53,188 nucleotides of DNA, taken from an uncultured Candidatus Peribacteria bacterium. Its GTDB lineage: Bacteria > Patescibacteriota > Gracilibacteria > Absconditabacterales > Absconditicoccaceae. Shown in pieces: positions 2,156 through 14,824 of this stretch. Where the stretch lies: positions 1 to 53,188 of the forward strand of contig CAYRHE010000001.1 in the NCBI GenBank assembly GCA_964424095.1. The letters run 5' to 3'. Every line of letters begins with the position of its first letter. Positions within the stretch are counted from its first letter, which is position 1. A program made the position numbers and the translations under genes. The notes beneath the pieces are model-generated. The model saw nothing but the letters and a program-made list of their open reading frames with translations. It did no database searches and was not told the origin of the DNA.

Positions 2156-3091
2156 TTATCTTCTAAGGAATCTCTTGTTTTTTTCTAAACCGTCTCTTCT
2201 TTCCAATTCTTCACTTATTTTTAGGAAGGTTTCTTTGTCTTTCTTATTAATTGCTTCATCCGCTTTTTTCTCAAGATCCTTTTGGCTCATATTTGACAAA
2301 AAAGACTTGAGATTGTGTTCTTGTGAAATTTCATTGACTAATTCTTCGTCATCCTTGAGGTCTTCTTCTATTGTTTTTATGATAGTATTGTAAATTTCTA
2401 CAATATATCTCTTTCTTATACCATCATGATGATCATCAAAGAACCACTCTCTCTTTGCTATCCAATCATCCAAGAACAATCTTTCATCTTCTGGAGTTTT
2501 AAAAAAACAAAGATAATCAAACAAAATTCCAGGAAGAAGCTCTAACTTTTCATCGATAACACTTCTATCAATAAAAAACATAGGACCATTGATATAATCA
2601 AACATATCATCGACGTAATCATCAAAACTATTTATATCAAAACATTCGTCTTGTTTTACATCTTGATTATTGTTTTGATTTACATCATCGATTTTGTTTA
2701 TATTTACTTCCTCCTCGGTTTTATTGGTTTCTACTTCATTTTTATCAACAAATTTGAATGTTTTTATAGAAACATCAGGCAAGTCAATAATAACCGGAGG
2801 GAAAAAACCTCTTTTGGGTTGGATTGAAAAAAGATTAACAAGATATGGTTCATCCAAAGGAAACCAATAATCAAAAACATCTTTAGCAATCTTTTTTACA
2901 AGAACCAAACCAGGAACTGGCATGTCAATACCAACAGCGTTTTTATCCATATATACAGATACTTTAAATTTCTCTCTCGCTTTGGACGCAAGAAAAATTT
3001 GAAAAAAAACTTTATCCACATACAAAGAACTATTGATGCTCATGGATTTTACCGCTTTGGTATATATAATACTTATTTTTTTATTTTCCAT
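2156..3091 (-). CDS. Hypothetical acidic protein
   Basis: Uninterrupted 311-aa ORF, TAA stop, Asp/Glu-rich central part, charged helical C-terminus. No TGA codons. Confidence 0.6.
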   Translation of the reverse strand: MENKKISIIYTKAVKSMSINSSLYVDKVFFQIFLASKAREKFKVSVYMDKNAVGIDMPVPGLVLVKKIAKDVFDYWFPLDEPYLVNLFSIQPKRGFFPPVIIDLPDVSIKTFKFVDKNEVETNKTEEEVNINKIDDVNQNNNQDVKQDECFDINSFDDYVDDMFDYINGPMFFIDRSVIDEKLELLPGILFDYLCFFKTPEDERLFLDDWIAKREWFFDDHHDGIRKRYIVEIYNTIIKTIEEDLKDDEELVNEISQEHNLKSFLSNMSQKDLEKKADEAINKKDKETFLKISEELERRDGLEKNKRFLRR

Positions 3092-3246
3092 GGCTTTATA
3101 TTTTTTGGTTTATTTTCTTTTTGTTTGTATTTTCTTTTTTATGATTTTTCCAATTATTGTCAACACCAATATCTAGATAAAAAAGGATTGCAAACCTTTC
3201 GATATTCGTTAGTTATATAATAATATTTATATTCTGATTTTTTATT

Positions 3247-4548
3247 GTGACTTCAATTTATATACACATCCCATTTTGTGCTCAAAAATGTCCATACTGT
3301 TCATTTTACAGTTTTTTTCTAAATCCAGAAATCAAAGAAAAGATGATTGGCGACTATATTGAAACATTGTACAAAGAAATTACTAATACCGCGCCACATA
3401 TCATAAATAAAAAAATTCAGACGATTTATCTTGGTGGTGGTACACCAAACGTTTTGTCTCCTGAGCAACTGACAGGAATTGTAGATTTTTTGGGGCAACA
3501 TTTTGATACAAGTGAAATAATGGAGCTCAATATCGAACTCAATCCCTACCCTACCCAAGAAATATACAATCTGATTTCTTATTTTCATACTCATTTCAAA
3601 AAACGACCAAGGCTTAGATTTAGTTTTGGAATACAAACTTTTGATAATCAAATTTTGCAAGATGTAAGAAGACCTGTAAGTTTTGGCGGATTAACTGATT
3701 TTTTGAGAGGTCTGAGAGAAATCAAACAAGAAAATATGGTATTTAATTTTGATTTTATTGCGTTTGGAAAGTTTGGCGAAACGAGGAAGGGCGAAGCCCA
3801 ACTTTGGGATCCGGGAAAAATAGATTTTTTTGACCGTTTCGCCAGTAGTCAATTTGCTGATAGTTTTTCTCTTTATACATTGGAGTTATTTCCTGGCTCT
3901 AAATGGCAAAGCAAAACTCCAGATCAAGCAATTTCTGGAACTTATTATGGAAGTGATGACGATATTTTTGCTGAATTTGCCTATCTAAAAGATATAATCT
4001 TGGATGCTTGATATCATAGATATGAATCTTCTAACTTTTCCAAACCTGGAGTAAGCAGCATCCACAATAGAGTCTATCGAACTATGCAAAATTATATATG
4101 ATTTTGACCTAGTGCTTCATCGTTTAGTAGATTAGAGGGGTTAGGTGGGTTAGATGGATTAGGTAGATTAGAGGGGTTAGATAGATTAGGTAGATTAGAG
4201 GGATTAGATGGATTAGGTGGATTAGATAAAGAAGTGAAAGCAGTCAGATGGACTAATACTTCAAACCTTGTAGAATATCTCAAGGGTGATTATATCGATC
4301 AAAGCAAGACTGTATTTATGACGGAAAAAGACCTACTTATTGAATCTTTTTTCTTGTGACTTAGAACTGATACGGGGGTATCTGATCTTGATAAATATAT
4401 TTCTATTTTGGTTAAAAATTATAAAGAACTTGTTGAAGCTTATAAAGATGAATGACTACTTTATGATGTTGATGATAGATTATTGTTGACTGATAAAGGG
4501 ATGGATGTTTCCAATACGATTATAACTGATTTATTGAAAGATATATAA
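3247..4548 (+). CDS. hemW: Radical SAM heme chaperone HemW (HemN-like, oxygen-independent coproporphyrinogen oxidase family)
   Basis: GTG 3247, TAA 4546-4548, 433 aa with TGA=Gly. IHIPFCAQKCPYCSF (CxxxCxxC), YLGGGTP, C-terminal gYHRYESSNFSKPG...HNRVY...gFgPSA. Confidence 0.85.
4129..4227 (+). repeat. In-frame 9-bp tandem repeat (11 units) inside hemW
   Basis: Units RGRTTAGRK read in frame as RLE GLG GLD GLG RLE GLD RLG RLE GLD GLG GLD. The antisense track ORF 4092-4283 (PNPSN repeats) is its mirror artefact. Confidence 0.9.
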
Positions 4549-4553
4549 AAAAA

Positions 4554-4571
4554 CCACTGACTAAGCAGTGG
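4554..4571 (+). terminator. Hairpin after hemW
   Basis: ccactg-actaag-cagtgg, 6 nt after the hemW stop, followed by atcttt. Confidence 0.45.
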
Positions 4572-4590
4572 ATCTTTAAAGAAAAATTCA

Positions 4591-4615
4591 GATCTGCCTG
4601 GCGGTAAGCAGGATC
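4591..4615 (-). terminator. Hairpin after membrane-protein gene 4615-5433
   Basis: gatctgc...gcaggatc stem with one bulge. On the minus strand it is followed by gaattttt. Confidence 0.45.
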
Positions 4616-5433
4616 TATTTTTCCAATGAAAGTAGTTTTGTAAAGAACATAGCGTTTGCTAAATAAAATAATGGAAGTGTCCAAAACAAACCAACAAAAA
4701 GAGCCAATAATCACAATATATTTACAACACCAATAATAATATTTAAAGCAAATAAATTTGCTGCTTTATGTTTTGTAATTTTCCAAGATCTTTTAATTGC
4801 CTGCCATGGACCAAGATTTTCTTCGAGAATAAGATATGGAACCATATTTAACCTCAAAGCTACAAGTATTCATGGAATAATAAACAATATAATTCAAACA
4901 AATATAGCAATTCATGTAATAATATATGCAATCAAATATTTGAGAAATTTTTCTGGATCTACGAAAATATCTACAGCTCTTGATTTCTTCTCTTGAATAA
5001 TAGCAAGACTTAATTTTTTTAGTCCAAAATCTATTCGTATATATAAAACACCAAAAACAATTATCAAAACAGATACAAATAAAGTTGTAGGACGACTAGG
5101 ATCTGACAATTCACTTTGAAAAATTTGTAATATAAACACCAAAACTATTCACAAAGCATATTTCCAAACATTTTTTCTTGCAAGTTTCCATGATGGTTTG
5201 ATAATTTCACTTTGTGTTAATCATTTTTCTCTTCAAACATATATAATTGAAACTAACATGGTTACAACTCACAACAAAAAACCTATTCCAGAAAATGTTT
5301 TGATGTATAAAAGATTTATCATAATATTTGTTGTTTCAATAGGAACTTCATTCAACAAAAGAGCACTTATTATCCAAAGAATTCAAAAGAAAAACGGTAA
5401 AAGCATACCCAAAATAGCCAAAGCCTTTTTCAT
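4615..5433 (-). CDS. Multi-pass integral membrane protein, function unknown
   Basis: ATG 5433, TAG 4615-4617, 272 aa with TGA=Gly. Same frame as track ORF 4912-5142. Several hydrophobic helices. Confidence 0.6.
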
Positions 5434-5519
5434 AAGAAAAAAATAATAAAATAAAAAATATTTATTTTTGTGCATGTAATATATACATAGGGAAAGAAAC
5501 TTCAAGAGAACTCTTTATT

Positions 5520-6380
5520 TTATGAACTAATTTCTTCTGCTATCACCAAAATTCTTTGCTTTGCTGATCAAATAGGATAACATCACATCAAAGTTAGATA
5601 ATTTTTGGAAGTATTTGCGTATTCCATATAAGCATCATTTACATGCTGTGGGTATTTTACTTGGATATCTACTACTTTATATTCGTATAATTGTCATTTC
5701 CATACTATCTGCAAAACATCACCCAACTCCATTTTTGCAATATGAGCAAAAGCCATTCAATATGGATTATGCTTCCATCGTTCTTGACTGGTATGACCAA
5801 ATATCAATGTATTTCATGGTTGACCAGGCTCTGGAGTTGTTGGATATTTTACTACTCACTCTTTGAGCTCTTCATTATAGTTTCTATAAATAAACTCTTT
5901 CATATTTGTATACTTACTAATCACAATAGGATCATCAACATTGAATCTTGGTACTATTAACCTATTTGTTGGCGGCAAAGTATTGAAAGAAAAATCATAT
6001 CATTTGATATTTTCTGACAAAAGTTCTTCTATATCTTGAGCTAGAGGAGATGAAATTTTTCAATTCTGATCTTGATATTTTTCAACTAATCTATCTACTT
6101 CCTGCTCCTTTTGAAATTGATAATCTACTATCGAGGATATAGAACTATCTTGTTGCATAATTTCTTTTATATTTTGCGAAGAAACTTGTTTTTGTGTGCT
6201 AAATAAATTTGAAAAACTTGACAAAAACAACTGAGCATTGGTAAAAACAGTAACGAAAACAAACGCCACAGCAGCAAACATAATCAATAATTTTATTTCA
6301 CGCAAGAAACCCAAAACTTTGTGTTTTTTTCTCTTGGCATGTGTAATATGTGCTAAATGATCAACAGTAATATAATTCAT
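5520..6380 (-). CDS. Sortase-family transpeptidase with N-terminal membrane anchor
   Basis: ATG 6380, TAA 5520-5522, 286 aa. Extends track ORF 6060-6380 through TGA codons. Has LIFGHTS (His), LTLMgCYPIg (TLxTC-like Cys) and QRILV (Arg). Confidence 0.75.
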
Positions 6381-6588
6381 ATAAACTATTTTAACAATAT
6401 ATATAAAACAATTCCATTATATTGAGAATACAAAAAAACTCAAAAAATCAGACTATTTATTTATATTTTGGTATTGACAATTATAAAAATAATAAAAATA
6501 AAAAAACTTTTTTGATTGTATTTTGAAATAAAAATAATATACTTATTTTTCGATATCAATATTCAAATGTTTATAAAAAACCTCAGAT

Positions 6589-8250
6589 ATGAACTACAAA
6601 GTGCTTTATGACAACCCAAACGAAGAATTACTTACTAGACTACTTAAGATCAGAAATATTACTGAAGATATAGATGCTTTTTTGGAAGCAAGACTTCAGG
6701 ATTATTGGTTGGATCCTTTTTTGCTAAATGATATGGAAATAGCAGTAGAAAGGATAATTTTTGCAATAAAAAACAAACAAAAGATTATGATATTTGGAGA
6801 TTATGATGTTGATTGAGTAACCTCTAGTTATATTTTGTATAAATTTATAAATAAACATCTAAATTATAAAAACATAAGCATTCAATACCCTGACAGAATA
6901 AAAGAATGATATGGTATCAAAAAAATTCACATTGATAATATGAAAAAAAAATGAATTGATTTGGTTATTACTGTTGATAATGGTATCGCTTCACTTGAAG
7001 AAGCTCTTTATGCTAAAGAACTAGGAATAGATCTTGTTATAACTGATCATCACCAAGATTTGGAAAGCATCCCTCAAGCAGTTGCAGTGGTAAATCCCCA
7101 AATTTCTCCAAATTATCCATTTAAATGATTGGCTGGTGTTGGTGTTGCATTCAAACTTATTTGCGCATTACTTACAAGAAGCACTTTTAATCAAGAACAA
7201 AAAAATCAGATTTTCAATTATTTTTTGCCTGTAGTTGCTATTGGTACTGTTGCGGACGTTGTTCCTTTGGTTCACGAAAACAGAATTATTGTAAAAAGAT
7301 GACTTGAAATATTAAACAACAAACAAAGCAAAGTTCCATCTTCTCTTAGAGGATTTTTGACTTATCTAAACATAAAACAACCAATTGATACATATCATAT
7401 AGGATATGTTATTTGACCAAGAATAAATGCTGGTGGAAGAATGACATCTCCTTATGATAGTCTCTATTCACTACTCTACTCTGGAGAAAAACAAATCCCT
7501 TACTTGGAAAATCTAGAACAAATCAACACCGAAAGAAGAAGTGTGCAAGAAAAAATGTTTAAACTTGCAGAACAAAATATTGATTTGGATAAAAAAATTC
7601 TTGTGGTATATAGTGAAGATTTTCATGAAGGTATAGTTTGAATTGTTTCTGGAAGGCTTACAGAAAAATACTACAAACCATCTATGGTTATGAAAGTTGA
7701 TCAAGAAAAACACAGTGCAGTTGCTAGTTTGAGGGGGCCAGATTATTTCGATATTATCGAAATGATAAAATCTGCTGGTCATCTTTTGCAAAGATTTGGA
7801 GGTCATAGATGAGCAGGGGGATTATCTGTTGATCTAGACAATCTAGATGAACTGGTTGCTCATTTCCAAGATTACTGTGAAAAGAAAATTTCAGATAAAG
7901 ATCTCAAAAAAACTATAAGCATAGATACCAAGCTTTATCATCACGAATGGGATCTTGATTCTTTGTGTAAAATTGACAAACTTGCTCCTTTTTGAGAAGG
8001 AAATGGAGAACCGACTTTTTTATTGGAAAATACTCGTGTAAACAAAATTGAAAAAGTAGGAAACAATGGTAAATGACATCTCAAAATCCATGCTACGCAT
8101 GGAGAAGAAAAAATCACCTCCCTCTTTTGGGGAAAAGGTGAAGATGCCTCAAGTATCTCTTCCAACACAATTTCATTGGTTGGAAAAATCAAAAAAGACA
8201 CTTACAATGGTGGTGTTTTTTTGGAAGGAATGGATATGGAAGAAGTATAA
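6589..8250 (+). CDS. recJ: Single-stranded-DNA-specific exonuclease RecJ
   Basis: ATG 6589, TAA 8248-8250, 553 aa with TGA=Gly. DHH motifs [12 protein letters not shown], VDNG, ITDHH and GGH. Confidence 0.9.
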
Positions 8251-11608: not shown

Positions 11609-11982
11609 GGGGATGTCTCTGGATTTGATAAAGGGACTTCATAATTGATGACAGCCACTACTCGATGAGCGTACCGAGTATACTAATCGTTCAACCAAAA
11701 AATGCTAACGCATCTAAATCTCTTTTAAAGAGAGCTGCTCTTGTTAGTCCTGCTTACGCAGTCTAATTTAGACAGTAACCATCCTGACTGCTGACTCCTT
11801 CTATCTTTCAGGTCGCCCTAAGAAGGAAAACATTATGTTGCTAGGACAAAATGCTCGCCTGTTTATCGGCCAAAGCTTGCCTGTACTAGTAACTTGAAAA
11901 ACCATAGGCCTATAGATAATCTATAGTGGTAGAAATTGTTGATTATGCCTTTTAGACACGGGTTCGATTCCCGTCATCTCCA
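11609..11982 (+). ncRNA. ssrA: tmRNA (SsrA)
   Basis: 5' ggggatg pairs with 3' catctcc, including the G3:U pair. T-arm gggttcgattccc. Discriminator A; CCA is not encoded. Candidate tag ORF 11704-11766: ANASKSLLKRAALVSPAYAV then TAA. Confidence 0.9.
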
Positions 11983-12035: not shown

Positions 12036-12067
12036 AAAGAGATCCTTTGAAAACAAAGAATCTCTTT
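12036..12067 (-). terminator. Terminator of the RiPP operon
   Basis: Composite stem aaagagat-c-ctttg aaaa caaag-a-atctcttt. On the minus strand it is followed by a T-run. It lies 11 nt after the precursor stop. Confidence 0.65.
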
Positions 12068-12078
12068 AATTATTAACA

Positions 12079-12243
12079 TTAATGACAATCGCAATTACAA
12101 TCACAGCCATCTGAACCACAATCATTACAATCACAATTACAATCAGTACAATCAGAACATGCTGAACAATCTTTATATAATTTATCAGCATTCTTTAATG
12201 ACACCACTGCATCATTAAATCCGAAACCCAATAATTTATCCAT
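12079..12243 (-). CDS. Cys/Asp-rich RiPP precursor peptide (54 aa), not in the ORF track
   Basis: ATG 12243 preceded by gaAAGGAGGtttct. TAA 12079-12081. MDKLLGFGFNDAVVSLKNADKLYKDCSACSDCTDCNCDCNDCGSDGCDCNCDCH. Starts 24 nt downstream of the rSAM stop. Confidence 0.7.
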   Translation of the reverse strand: MDKLLGFGFNDAVVSLKNADKLYKDCSACSDCTDCNCDCNDCGSDGCDCNCDCH

Positions 12244-12267
12244 AGAAACCTCCTTTCTGAATTTAAA

Positions 12268-13578
12268 TTATATATTTTTTTTGATTTCTAACAATTTTTC
12301 TTTTCCCATTAGTTTATACACAATTGGTACTAATTCTCTGTACAAAACACAATGAGGATCTTTTCCATTCACCCTTTCTAAAGGACAACCACTTGTACAA
12401 ATATATTTTAAATTACAATTTTTGCAGTCATCATTAACTTCTCCGTAATAACTTTTTTTCTGAATTATCGATAGCAAATCTTCTTTGTCAAATATAGATC
12501 CTATAGAATCCGTTACCCCAAATTGTGTATGACAGAAATATATATTTCCATCTGTATACAAAGCACCTCCTGAAAAACCATTACTACATGTTTGAAAGAA
12601 TGGGTCTGAGAACTTTAAATCACAAAGTTTATGATTTTTAGAAAACTCATAACCATTATCAATAGCAGAAGATAATTCTTTATAACACTCTTTTAATACC
12701 GAAGAGACTTTTTTTATATCAAGACTTTCGTTTTGAACAAAAGAGAATCTAAAGGGTATTTTTTTTCTAATCAAATATTTTGTAAAATCAAGCAAACCAT
12801 CAATATTTTTATTAGACACAACAGTCATAATACCTGGTCTAACACCTGATTGTATTAATTTATTTATATTTGATTCAACAATTTTAAAACTACCATCACC
12901 ATTCTTAAAATAACGAGTGCTATCTTGAAAAGAATCTAATCCATCTAAAGACACGCCTATTCCAATCTTTTCTTCTTTAATAAATGAAATAATTTCGTCT
13001 GATAAAATAGTAAGATTAGTAAGAAAAGTTATCCTTAGTTTACAATTTAATTGGATTAATCGTTGTTTTAAATTTTTTATAGCTTCTTTCCATTGTTTAA
13101 ATTTTAAGAAAGGCTCACCTCCTGCAAGCCGCAACGAAACATAATTAAGATTTTTTTCTTTTACTGTTTGAATAATTTTCTCAGATAAAATATTAATTTT
13201 TTCATCTTCGAGATAATTATTAAATCCTAATGTATGAATATTGCAATACGAACACCTTAGAGTACAATTATTTGTCGTATGAATCCATAAATTTAAACTT
13301 TTAGGTGTAGTATCCCAATAAATATCATCAAAAATATTTGAATAATTAACTATGTTTTTTTCTGATAAAATATCACAGGCCAACTTAATATTATCTTCTG
13401 TCGTTACAAAGAAATCTGCTATTTCTTTAATAGTTTTTTTACCATCTATAAGCATTAAAACATTATACTGGATTTTGTTAATGACCTTTAATCCATCTTT
13501 TATATATGGATTAACTACCGAATAGAACATATCATCTATCGGAATAATTAATAATTGACCATTTCTATACGGTATCAT
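12268..13578 (-). CDS. Radical SAM/SPASM-domain peptide maturase with N-terminal RRE-like domain
   Basis: Uninterrupted 436-aa ORF, AGGAG Shine-Dalgarno. CTLRCSYC (CxxxCxxC), GGEP, C-terminal CKNCNLKYICTSGCP plus further Cys. The N-terminal ~90 aa look like a PqqD/winged-helix domain. Confidence 0.88.
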   Translation of the reverse strand: MIPYRNGQLLIIPIDDMFYSVVNPYIKDGLKVINKIQYNVLMLIDGKKTIKEIADFFVTTEDNIKLACDILSEKNIVNYSNIFDDIYWDTTPKSLNLWIHTTNNCTLRCSYCNIHTLGFNNYLEDEKINILSEKIIQTVKEKNLNYVSLRLAGGEPFLKFKQWKEAIKNLKQRLIQLNCKLRITFLTNLTILSDEIISFIKEEKIGIGVSLDGLDSFQDSTRYFKNGDGSFKIVESNINKLIQSGVRPGIMTVVSNKNIDGLLDFTKYLIRKKIPFRFSFVQNESLDIKKVSSVLKECYKELSSAIDNGYEFSKNHKLCDLKFSDPFFQTCSNGFSGGALYTDGNIYFCHTQFGVTDSIGSIFDKEDLLSIIQKKSYYGEVNDDCKNCNLKYICTSGCPLERVNGKDPHCVLYRELVPIVYKLMGKEKLLEIKKNI

Positions 13579-13622
13579 AATTTTCTCCTTTCTTTTTTGT
13601 TTATTTATCTCTTTATATATAT

Positions 13623-14330
13623 TTATAGTGTTTTATCAACATTTTTATAAACATTTATTCTGTCACATCAATACTCTATCACCTTTTCAAAATTCTTATT
13701 TTGTTTCCAATACTCTCGTAAATCTGATCTCAATTCCTTGTGTAACAGATATCATTTATCTGGTTTAGCTAAAAATTGCTGACATGAATCATTTAAGATA
13801 ACTGTCAGTGATTCCTTGAGAAATTCAAATTGTTCGTTTGTTAAATCTTTCATAGCATTACTATCTTTATAATAATGTATCACTTGAAAATGCTGTAGTT
13901 CGTGAAGAAAATTTCAAAGAAAATTATCAATATTCCAAAAGATACAAGTCCATATATATCATTTTTCATAATCATAAGGACCACGGGGAAAAGTTGTAAG
14001 ATAAATAGTAAAATCTTTTCTATAAATTGGTCTTTTAGTTAATCTTTCCATACAAAGACAAGCTTGTTCAAATTTTTCTTGAAATATCTTTTGAGATTTA
14101 ATTAAAACCGTATCAATAAGTATTTTATTATCTTTATATAATTTATTTAGATATGGTATCATAAACTCTTTTGCTTCTTCATAACTTATTCATACTAATT
14201 TATTTGCTATTTCTTGATATTCTGGAGACAATGATTCTTTCCAATTTTTTCCATGAGAAATTTTATTACATCAATCTACTCGATTTTTGAGATCTTTTTC
14301 GATATCTAGTTGAAACTGAAAAGAAAACAT
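13623..14330 (-). CDS. HExxH motif protein (putative Zn metallopeptidase; candidate leader peptidase)
   Basis: ATG 14330, TAA 13623-13625, 235 aa. Six of its eight Gly are TGA. Contains FLHELQHFQV. Same frame as track ORF 13959-14162. Confidence 0.6.
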
Positions 14331-14368
14331 TATATAAAACTTATAAATTAAATTTTTCCTTTTATTTA

Positions 14369-14396
14369 ATTTTACACTTTGGATAATATAAATCAA
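14369..14396 (-). promoter_or_regulatory. Candidate sigma70-type promoter of the HExxH-rSAM-precursor operon
   Basis: Minus strand TTGATT-16 nt-TAAAAT, about 35 nt upstream of ATG 14330. Confidence 0.4.
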
Positions 14397-14400
14397 ATAT

Positions 14401-14570
14401 AAATATCCACCTCCTATATACTACCCAAACATAATCAGATTCTAATTTCTTTCCATAATTACCCTATCCCCTATCATTTTGGCGAAGTTTCAGAACTTAT
14501 AGATTTCCTCTAGAATCTCTTCATAATTAAACCTAGAGGGTTCAGAACATAAGTTAGTGTGTCCAAATTT
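14401..14570. repeat. Cassette-boundary direct repeat, copy 1 of 3
   Basis: Aligns with 23611-23772 and 25427-25490. Shared blocks: ctcctatatacta(c/t)ccaaaca, cctctagaatctc, agggttcagaacataa. Confidence 0.7.
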
Positions 14571-14824
14571 AGGGTTTTTGATGGTTCAAATAAACCAAAA
14601 CTAGTATAGAGAACTGATATTTCAGGGGTGTGCAAACCCTGATTTTTTTTATAGTAAATTTTGTTGTTGAAGCACACTCTAATTAGTAACCGCTTTATCT
14701 CAATATCCTCTAAATCTCGTGATGCTAAAGGATTTTTTATAACTGTTTTTGCCTCATTATATGTTTTTTCAAATTCACTTTTTATAAAAAGAAACATACC
14801 GCTGTAAGAATTCATGTAATCCAT
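14510..14824 (-). CDS. Hypothetical protein; its C-terminus is encoded by the boundary repeat
   Basis: 104-aa ORF. ATG lies 3 nt after the epimerase stop. The C-terminal ...TYVLNPLGLIMKRF matches the C-terminus of ORF 23716-23910. Confidence 0.4.
   Translation of the reverse strand: MDYMNSYSGMFLFIKSEFEKTYNEAKTVIKNPLASRDLEDIEIKRLLIRVCFNNKIYYKKNQGLHTPEISVLYTSFGLFEPSKTLNLDTLTYVLNPLGLIMKRF

Follow-up and report, generated by a model that had tools for sequence, protein, structure and literature searches.

PapB, the maturase of the Paenibacillus polymyxa ranthipeptide freyrasin, is a radical S-adenosylmethionine (rSAM) enzyme with a SPASM region that acts on PapA, a precursor rich in Cys and Asp. 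CteB of the Clostridium thermocellum SCIFF system (PDB 5wgg) consists of a recognition element (RRE) of the kind found with peptides that are made on the ribosome and altered after translation (RiPPs), an rSAM domain and a SPASM region, and places a Cys thioether in the short, Cys-rich precursor CteA; the known SCIFF bridge joins Cys to Thr. QhpD, likewise an rSAM/SPASM enzyme, makes Cys-to-Asp/Glu thioethers in QhpC, the gamma subunit of quinohemoprotein amine dehydrogenase, and NxxcB of streptococci bridges Cys to the Asn beta-carbon of NxxcA, again as a thioether. The CcpM/Clo7bot, CefB 'Cys-every-fifth', TIGR04463 'very small C-rich' and CXXX-repeat systems are of the same kind, each an rSAM/SPASM enzyme with a short Cys-rich precursor. 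Here we analyse a three-gene cassette in a 53,188-nucleotide stretch of DNA (the window) from an uncultured Candidatus Peribacteria bacterium (contig CAYRHE010000001.1), a member of the candidate phyla radiation (CPR). The genes encode a protein with an HExxH motif, an rSAM/SPASM enzyme that we call the maturase, and a 54-codon precursor with a Cys/Asp-rich core. That the cassette is a peptide-maturation operon we regard as very probable.

Precursor, maturase and HExxH partner

The comparisons argue that the small open reading frame (ORF) at the end of the cassette is a real, conserved precursor gene. An earlier note, made from the letters of the window alone, had let its reading hang on whether such an ORF recurs beside homologous maturases, and it does: a genome scan with the maturase returned 75 loci, and about 70 loci with homologous maturases carry a neighbouring precursor. 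Furthermore, a search profile of 33 precursors, all taken from elsewhere, picked out the window ORF as the sole significant match among 1503 stop-to-stop segments (E = 5e-5). Seven Cys columns are invariant in five orthologues and differ only by TGT<->TGC changes, which indicates that the Cys frame is the one under selection. Between the window and locus L077, 26 of the 29 core residues are kept, whereas identity between the two maturases is 56% and the two leaders align poorly.

The leader (residues 1-25) carries the family motif G-F-N-D (with F9, N10 and D11), and the core (residues 26-54) reads CSACSDCTDCNCDCNDCGSDGCDCNCDCH. The core holds 11 Cys, 7 Asp and 3 Asn. The earlier count of 11 Cys was thus correct, but of the eight Asp given with it one is D25, which stands in the leader before the first Cys; with D25 included, 11 Asp/Asn face the 11 Cys. 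Nine of the 11 core Cys are preceded by Asp or Asn. The internal duplication that had been noticed in the DNA is also present, as two 41-nt copies that are 78% identical.

Homologues of the maturase fall into about 95 clusters at 34-59% identity in a protein search. In the closest loci, peptides with an xFND leader and a Cys/Asp core lie directly before or after the maturase gene; a precursor adjoins the maturase in the five closest loci checked, from recoded hosts and metagenomes, and in three standard-code hosts, with CDC-rich cores. The L077 core is near-identical to that of the window (...CSACTDCFDCNCDCSDCGSDGCDCNCDCH), and those of L079 and L082 read ...CGACSDCFDCNCDCNDCGSPCSDCNCDCH and ...CDCNNCNSDCFNCNCDCSDCGSEGTDCNCDCY. 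Five further loci (L076, L080, L081, L083 and L098) share the xFND leader and the Cys/Asp core. From Bacteroidota-type loci we compiled 53 more precursors with an ILFDD leader and one or few [D/N]-C motifs. In these bacteria (Spirosomataceae, Mucilaginibacter, Dyadobacter and others) the precursor is mostly an ORF of about 60 residues upstream of the maturase; its leader follows (N/E)-D-I-L-F-D-D-x-x-x-L, and its core has N-[AT]-[ND]-C-D-C-x-G-Y once or, alternatively, repeats (Y-N-D-C-T-N-N and Y-G-D-C-S-N, for instance). Across 64 precursors, the residue before the Cys is Asp at 140 and Asn at 46 of the 220 core Cys, 186 (85%) in all, and every one of the 64 contains [DN]-C at least once. 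The precursors that go with the maturase family have the leader motif L-x-F-N/D-D in common. The family extends beyond the CPR: Bacteroidota supply most of the members found, and these carry the [D/N]-C-D-C motif once. Its densest member is the window peptide.

No NCBIfam or Pfam model matches any tested precursor, and a protein-database search with the window precursor returns only the peptide itself. Precursors of this family are often missed in gene calling or called in the wrong frame and are consequently scarcely present in protein databases. The public gene calls give an overlapping, hydrophobic frame of the IVIVIAI type in L077 (5357-5536) and L079 (5283-5429), and none in L076 (5349-5489). 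A few of the related loci have features of their own. L077 holds a second, different precursor at 5511-5654 (MSISVLTFNDQFLLEAVVVNFSSSDGPDCSPCDCSDADCVCGNCACC), the start of which overlaps the read-through tail of the first. Two additional rSAM genes (3082-3978 and 6435-7424) lie around the maturase of L081, and L080 has, at 5748-5924, an unrelated Cys-rich ORF of 58 residues downstream, beside transposase genes of the insertion-sequence type; both loci use the standard code.

The maturase matches the rSAM superfamily model PF04055 with 57.9 bits (cut-off 29.5), which places it in that superfamily. Its rSAM motif reads CTLRCSYC, and a C-terminal motif, CKNCNLKYICTSGC, spans C385-C398. In an alignment of 22 members, the seven Cys of the SPASM region (C331, C349, C385, C388, C394, C398 and C410) are invariant together with G344, in a spacing that fits what we take to be the SPASM motif. 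The Pfam SPASM model PF13186 had no reported match on the window maturase, precomputed matches being limited to the homologue P0041 and to distant matches. The AlphaFold2 model of the maturase has a predicted local distance difference test (pLDDT) score of 87, and its N-terminus contains three strands (10-13, 18-22 and 30-34) followed by three helices (35-43, 50-57 and 61-72) at pLDDT 90-97. Together with the alignment to the N-terminus of CteB, this fold predicts an RRE-type leader-recognition domain. A PDB profile search with the 22-member alignment gave CteB as the best match (E = 2.6e-33, residues 10-415), and in a Foldseek search the model superposed over its full length on both CteB (TM-score 0.69) and TigE (0.70). 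The anaerobic sulfatase maturase anSME also superposes, SPASM region included, but without the N-terminal domain (TM-score 0.62). The architecture of the maturase is thus RRE, rSAM and SPASM, as in leader-dependent peptide maturases, in line with the RRE/PqqD-like domain, the CTLRCSYC motif and the SPASM-type cluster that the earlier note had recognised.

Among NCBIfam models, 72 rSAM/SPASM families match the maturase weakly and none comes near its cut-off. The top match is PapB (NF047865; 116.8 bits against a cut-off of 340, E = 1.2e-33), followed by a nif11-type family (95 bits), anSME (TIGR03942; 86.5 against 349), QhpD (80.9) and SCIFF (TIGR03974; 74.7 against 425). For a distant member, P0085, the top match is QhpD, with 106 bits against a cut-off of 453. 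We also considered the enzyme as an anaerobic sulfatase maturase and rejected this on its score and because no ORF of at least 200 residues in the window carries a sulfatase signature; the concern that it might fall into a family acting on something other than peptides is thereby allayed.

The third protein, the HExxH protein, matches no Pfam, NCBIfam or PADLOC model. In a protein search its family comprises 116 clusters, nearly all from Patescibacteria/CPR and none with a named member, and H143, E144, H147 and a downstream E173 are invariant in it. A homologue, P0103, was modelled by AlphaFold2 with pLDDT 94. Foldseek matches of the HExxH model were weak (best E = 0.012, TM-score about 0.3), with ArdC, IrrE/PprI, selecase and M1 zinc metallopeptidases at the top. 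We infer a zincin-like fold and a candidate leader peptidase.

Homologues of the HExxH protein (30-55% identity) flank the maturase in L076, L077, L079, L082 and L001. Altogether the HExxH gene is adjacent in six loci of the maturase clade, in two gene orders, lying on the opposite side of the maturase in L001. A metagenome scan with the HExxH family returned 76 loci, and in some 24-27 of them (about a third) an rSAM/SPASM gene lies no more than 3.5 kb away. The enzymes that these genes encode represent at least three subfamilies and belong to the window type, to a shorter 354-residue type or to more distant ones. Six loci (L084, L105, L117, L110, L128 and L157) pair the HExxH gene with two other rSAM/SPASM subfamilies and with (CDC)n peptides. 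The CxC-rich small ORFs beside the HExxH gene include ...ECCDCADCSCDCKC (L105), ...DCVDCADCCDCSDCSCDCKC (L117) and ...SECASDCDCNCSVDGDCPGDSN (L110), and in L084 the order is HExxH gene, 354-residue rSAM gene and then ...NCDCCDCADCSCDCKC. The sequences thus point to a strong link between the HExxH and rSAM genes, although the HExxH protein also occurs outside this system. The partnership and possible peptidase function proposed in the earlier note gain support from this repeated co-location and from the zincin-like fold. Furthermore, the maturase family and the two other rSAM subfamilies give this unannotated CPR-wide protein its first functional context.

Some other traits of these loci may be recorded here. 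The subfamily of about 354 residues (L084, L105 and L117, also L103 and L122) has no RRE, and its best NCBIfam matches are NirJ2, HxsC and ScmF. The L084, L105 and L117 peptides end in ...CDCADCSCDCKC and have a different, Lys-rich leader. Four members of the HExxH family (P0156, P0178, P0179 and P0192) are fused to a transglutaminase-like domain (PF01841), which hints at a peptidase or protein-modifying role beyond the cassette.

Glycine codons, provenance and surroundings of the pair

With translation table 11, ORFs of at least 150 residues cover 19% of the window; with table 4 or 25 the figure exceeds 100%. When the six in-frame TGA codons of the HExxH gene are compared with 30 homologues, four of the six positions hold Gly in 22-26 of the 30. 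Because these positions align mostly with Gly, we conclude that TGA encodes Gly (table 25) in this host, as had been supposed for a CPR bacterium. In the window as a whole, 446 of 950 Gly codons (47%) are TGA, and the adjacent HExxH gene has six TGA among eight. In contrast, neither the maturase (0/25) nor the precursor (0/4) contains any, as the earlier note had remarked of both genes, so the window pair can be cloned directly in E. coli. Three other window ORFs (1507-2040, 2156-3091 and 14510-14824) are likewise free of TGA (0/8, 0/7 and 0/4 Gly codons), unlike their neighbours, and may be other foreign genes.

The same pattern recurs in the five other recoded loci (L076, L077, L079, L082 and L001), whose maturases use TGA for 0/30, 1/31, 0/26, 1/27 and 0/34 Gly codons against a local background of 16-21%. 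Pooled over the recoded loci, the maturase Gly codons comprise 2 TGA and 171 GGN. At the 17 Gly columns conserved in the six maturases none of the 102 codons is TGA and the GGN codons are scrambled, with 2.9 different codons per column, whereas the HExxH genes use TGA for 15 of the 30 codons at six conserved Gly columns. Recoding was called from low table-11 coverage together with in-frame TGA in conserved genes; the gain in coverage under table 25 failed to discriminate between hosts. L001, listed as Bacteroidetes bacterium UBA1947, itself bears signs of TGA recoding: ORFs read with table 11 take up only 44% of the contig, and the HExxH homologue there needs TGA as a sense codon. Its taxonomic name may be wrong.

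In L077 and L079 a TGA stands right behind the final codon of the core, a position that TAA occupies in the window. We read this as a relic stop from a standard-code ancestor, which in the present hosts would add a C-terminal tail to the precursor. A neighbour-joining tree, computed without support values, interleaves recoded and standard-code hosts and places L001 inside the Bacteroidota clade, and in the six recoded loci the maturase-precursor pair sits in six different genomic neighbourhoods. In Bacteroidota (loci L002-L074, with the companion genes at about positions 3000-6000), a serine recombinase gene (PF00239) lies upstream of the pair in 46 of 66 loci and a gene for a 163-residue protein lies downstream of the maturase in 65 of 66. 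Some genomes carry two or three copies, such as Spirosoma profusum (L007, L009 and L035) and Mucilaginibacter pedocola (L045, L057 and L059). From its sequence, the Bacteroidota cassette looks like a small mobile element. The N-terminus of the 163-residue protein is hydrophobic and, by eye, resembles a membrane helix. Neither the recombinase nor this companion occurs in the window or in the CPR loci.

Because of the TGA-free coding, the relic TGA, the interleaved tree and the recombinase and multiple copies in Bacteroidota, the enzyme-precursor pair seems to be a piece of horizontally mobile DNA that arose under the standard code and was joined to a resident HExxH gene of the CPR. The TGA-free state beside a TGA-rich partner would reflect either repeated capture of the pair or selection against TGA. 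TGA-poor maturases in six genomes that read TGA as Gly, with two relic stops, would make a clean natural case of gene flow across a code boundary. Two other assignments were tried and rejected. A part in anti-phage defence was indicated by nothing beyond a generic viperin-rSAM match of the enzyme in PADLOC, which returned none for the HExxH protein or the Bacteroidota 163-residue protein. As for a phage origin, a scan of viral contigs yielded only distant rSAM genes (22-33% identity), none of the maturase clade.

The cassette is laid out much as it had been described, with all three genes on the minus strand in the order HExxH, maturase, precursor; a 44-nt gap separates the first two and a 24-nt gap with an AGGAGG the last two (Table 1). 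Three terminator-like sites were found where 0.4 would be expected from shuffled sequence, and the one behind the precursor appears to close the operon ahead of the convergent gene for transfer-messenger RNA (tmRNA; ssrA). A 104-residue ORF on the same strand just upstream of the HExxH gene (14510-14824) has no Pfam match. The cassette had been placed directly downstream of ssrA. It does lie 97 nt from the tmRNA 3' end, but its transcription runs toward the tmRNA gene, and a tmRNA gene is missing from the 4 kb around each of nine related loci. Because this adjacency is absent from the relatives, the position beside ssrA is incidental. We also rejected a genomic island inserted at ssrA: neither a second copy of the tmRNA 3' end nor an integrase turned up around the cassette, and the adjacency is missing in relatives.

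Table 1 Features of the cassette and its flanks in the window
Feature	Position	Strand	Remark
HExxH protein gene, 235 aa	13623-14330	minus	FLHELQH at 13890-13910; six in-frame TGA
HExxH motif	13890-13904	minus	
Maturase (rSAM/SPASM) gene, 436 aa	12268-13578	minus	no TGA codons
Predicted RRE-type (PqqD-like) N-terminal domain, residues ~1-90	13309-13578	minus	AlphaFold2 model, CteB alignment
CxxxCxxC (C105, C109, C112), rSAM [4Fe-4S] site	13243-13266	minus	invariant in 22 members
SPASM auxiliary-cluster region, C331-x12-G344-x4-C349...C385-x2-C388-x5-C394-x3-C398...C410	12349-12588	minus	alignment
Shine-Dalgarno AGGAGG	12249-12254	minus	5-nt spacer to precursor ATG; read from sequence
Precursor gene, 54 codons + TAA	12079-12243	minus	ATG at 12243, TAA at 12079-12081
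Precursor leader	12169-12243	minus	
Precursor core	12082-12168	minus	
Internal duplication, 41-nt copies	12076-12116 and 12118-12158		
Predicted intrinsic terminator	12036-12067	minus	14-pair stem and T-run, 12 nt past precursor stop
tmRNA (ssrA) gene	11609-11982	plus	ARAGORN; convergent neighbour, outside the system

Proposed chemistry and competing explanations

We favour a three-gene RiPP-type operon whose maturase makes iterated Cys-Asp/Asn thioethers and whose zincin removes the leader. As a combined statement we hold this to be somewhat probable; that the maturase installs thioethers, judged on its own by analogy with characterised enzymes, we put forward tentatively, at slightly less than an even chance. 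The RRE domain would bind the FND leader of the precursor. The rSAM cluster would make a 5'-deoxyadenosyl radical that takes a hydrogen from an Asp/Asn side-chain carbon, and a neighbouring Cys thiolate, held on the auxiliary SPASM cluster, would capture the carbon radical to give a non-alpha thioether of the ranthipeptide type. Repeated along the core, with 11 Cys against 11 Asp/Asn once D25 is counted, this would yield a very densely bridged small peptide, from which the HExxH zincin would then cut off the leader.

Thioethers are favoured because PapB and QhpD score best among curated families across the clade and both make Cys-to-Asp/Glu thioethers, because CteB is the closest structure and because the substrates are a family of Asp/Asn-Cys peptides. 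Bridges between adjacent or nearly adjacent residues are chemically plausible, since PapB is reported to cross-link Cys-Xn-Asp for n = 0-6, adjacent residues being accepted (PMC9413430). Since conservation of the core far exceeds that of the enzyme or the leader, we prefer a product that has a single, fixed partner (a metal ion, a cluster or a conserved target, for example) to a fast-evolving antibiotic.

Several observations weigh against this account. Among characterised enzymes, even the nearest share only about 19-22% identity with the maturase, and all curated families are missed by such a wide margin that the type of reaction is not confidently transferable. By fold, the maturase lies almost as close to TigE, which synthesises cyclopropylglycine, and to anSME, which forms formylglycine, as to CteB. 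A profile of the leader only, being so short, does not bring the window peptide to significance (E = 1.3). No exporter or immunity gene lies near the cassette, as the earlier note had pointed out. An rSAM gene is lacking near many HExxH homologues, among them close ones whose contigs are long (L086 and L088-L090), and since in addition the Foldseek matches are weak, the peptidase role is a guess. Lastly, a thioether at every Cys would leave no thiol for metal binding, so that dense cross-linking and a metal-ligand function partly conflict.

One explanation that we think unlikely but take seriously keeps operon and substrate the same and has another radical chemistry. The enzyme might oxidise Cys as anSME does, form C-C or ether bridges, epimerise residues or turn the [D/N]-Cys pair into a new ring; most thiols would then be free, and the product would serve as a metallothionein-like ligand of metals or clusters or as a peptide-derived cofactor. 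Metallothioneins are CxC-rich metal-binding peptides, which the precursor core resembles, and a core so much more conserved than enzyme or leader is what a cofactor-like product would lead one to expect. The retention of the system in small CPR genomes speaks for this explanation too. The close fold matches of anSME and TigE suit such chemistry. So does the finding that, in CPR genomes, (CDC)n peptides and this one HExxH family are paired with three or more unrelated rSAM/SPASM subfamilies, which suggests that the peptide, rather than one chemistry, is the constant. However, both of the top curated matches are to families producing Cys-Asp/Glu thioethers, the all but universal pairing of [D/N] with Cys is just what a Cys-to-Asp/Asn bridge would require, and no metal transporter or regulator is adjacent. 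A bolder conjecture, which we rate as distinctly improbable, joins several of these elements: a so far undescribed linkage, for instance one that joins immediately adjacent Asp/Asn and Cys residues and is formed up to eleven times; a conserved metal-binding or cofactor-like, non-antibiotic peptide needed by many CPR bacteria; a zincin-rSAM-CxC trio that has recruited at least three rSAM subfamilies; and a pair kept TGA-free through ongoing movement between genetic codes. If this were true, the pair would be a naturally 'code-neutral' mobile module.

It is very improbable that the peptide stays unmodified, as a metallothionein-like or regulatory product, while the rSAM enzyme acts elsewhere, for example as an anaerobic sulfatase maturase. 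The anSME family is indeed among the weak matches of the maturase and superposes on its model, yet the score lies far under the cut-off, anSME lacks the RRE domain that the maturase has, the window offers no sulfatase signature, and enzyme and peptide are adjacent across phyla and have a leader motif in common. Scarcely credible, finally, is that the Cys/Asp ORF is no real gene and that the overlapping +1 frame (12066-12191), with a hydrophobic peptide of the IVIVIAI type, or nothing at all, is encoded instead. Automatic gene callers did pick the alternative frame in L077 and L079, and a TGT/GAT repeat in AT-rich DNA opens such frames; but the TGT<->TGC changes that are silent in the Cys frame would exchange Val and Ala in the other, the Shine-Dalgarno sequence and the ATG belong to the Cys frame, and the FND/FDD leader is kept even in single-CDC Bacteroidota precursors, where no hydrophobic frame would exist. 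We thus return to the leader-dependent, thioether-forming operon as the reading that we prefer.

Position among known systems

The cassette is an RRE-rSAM-SPASM RiPP system of familiar type, comparable to SCIFF/CteB and freyrasin/PapB, with its own leader and core signature and its own partners. In the literature, of which our coverage is incomplete so that earlier work is possible, we found only genome-mining surveys and no characterisation of the family. The present comparison thereby defines a sizeable, uncurated and uncharacterised family, for which the combination of an F-N/D-D leader with [D/N]-Cys cores is diagnostic.

The likeness to described systems holds at the level of architecture and composition, and the differences lie in sequence and context. 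The models for CcpM/Clo7bot, CefB, TIGR04463 and the CXXX-repeat family score 43-86 bits against cut-offs of 350-600. CteB is 19% identical to the window maturase, and SCIFF precursors carry another conserved sequence. QhpC, the substrate of QhpD, is an enzyme subunit rather than a leader-core peptide, and amine dehydrogenase genes are not present at the window. Many Bacteroidota cores of the form N-x-N-C-D-C contain N-x-x-C, as does NxxcA; however, there is no specific sequence match to the NxxcB system, the first Asn varies (T, H or S), and the conserved element is the residue before Cys. The PapB/PapA system differs from the cassette in its leader and in the maturase score already given, and the partner in the window is a CPR HExxH protein, a putative zincin. 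PapA is built from six regular C-x3-D units, whereas the window peptide is built from a [D/N]-C unit, usually as C-D-C, that brings 11 Cys into 29 residues.

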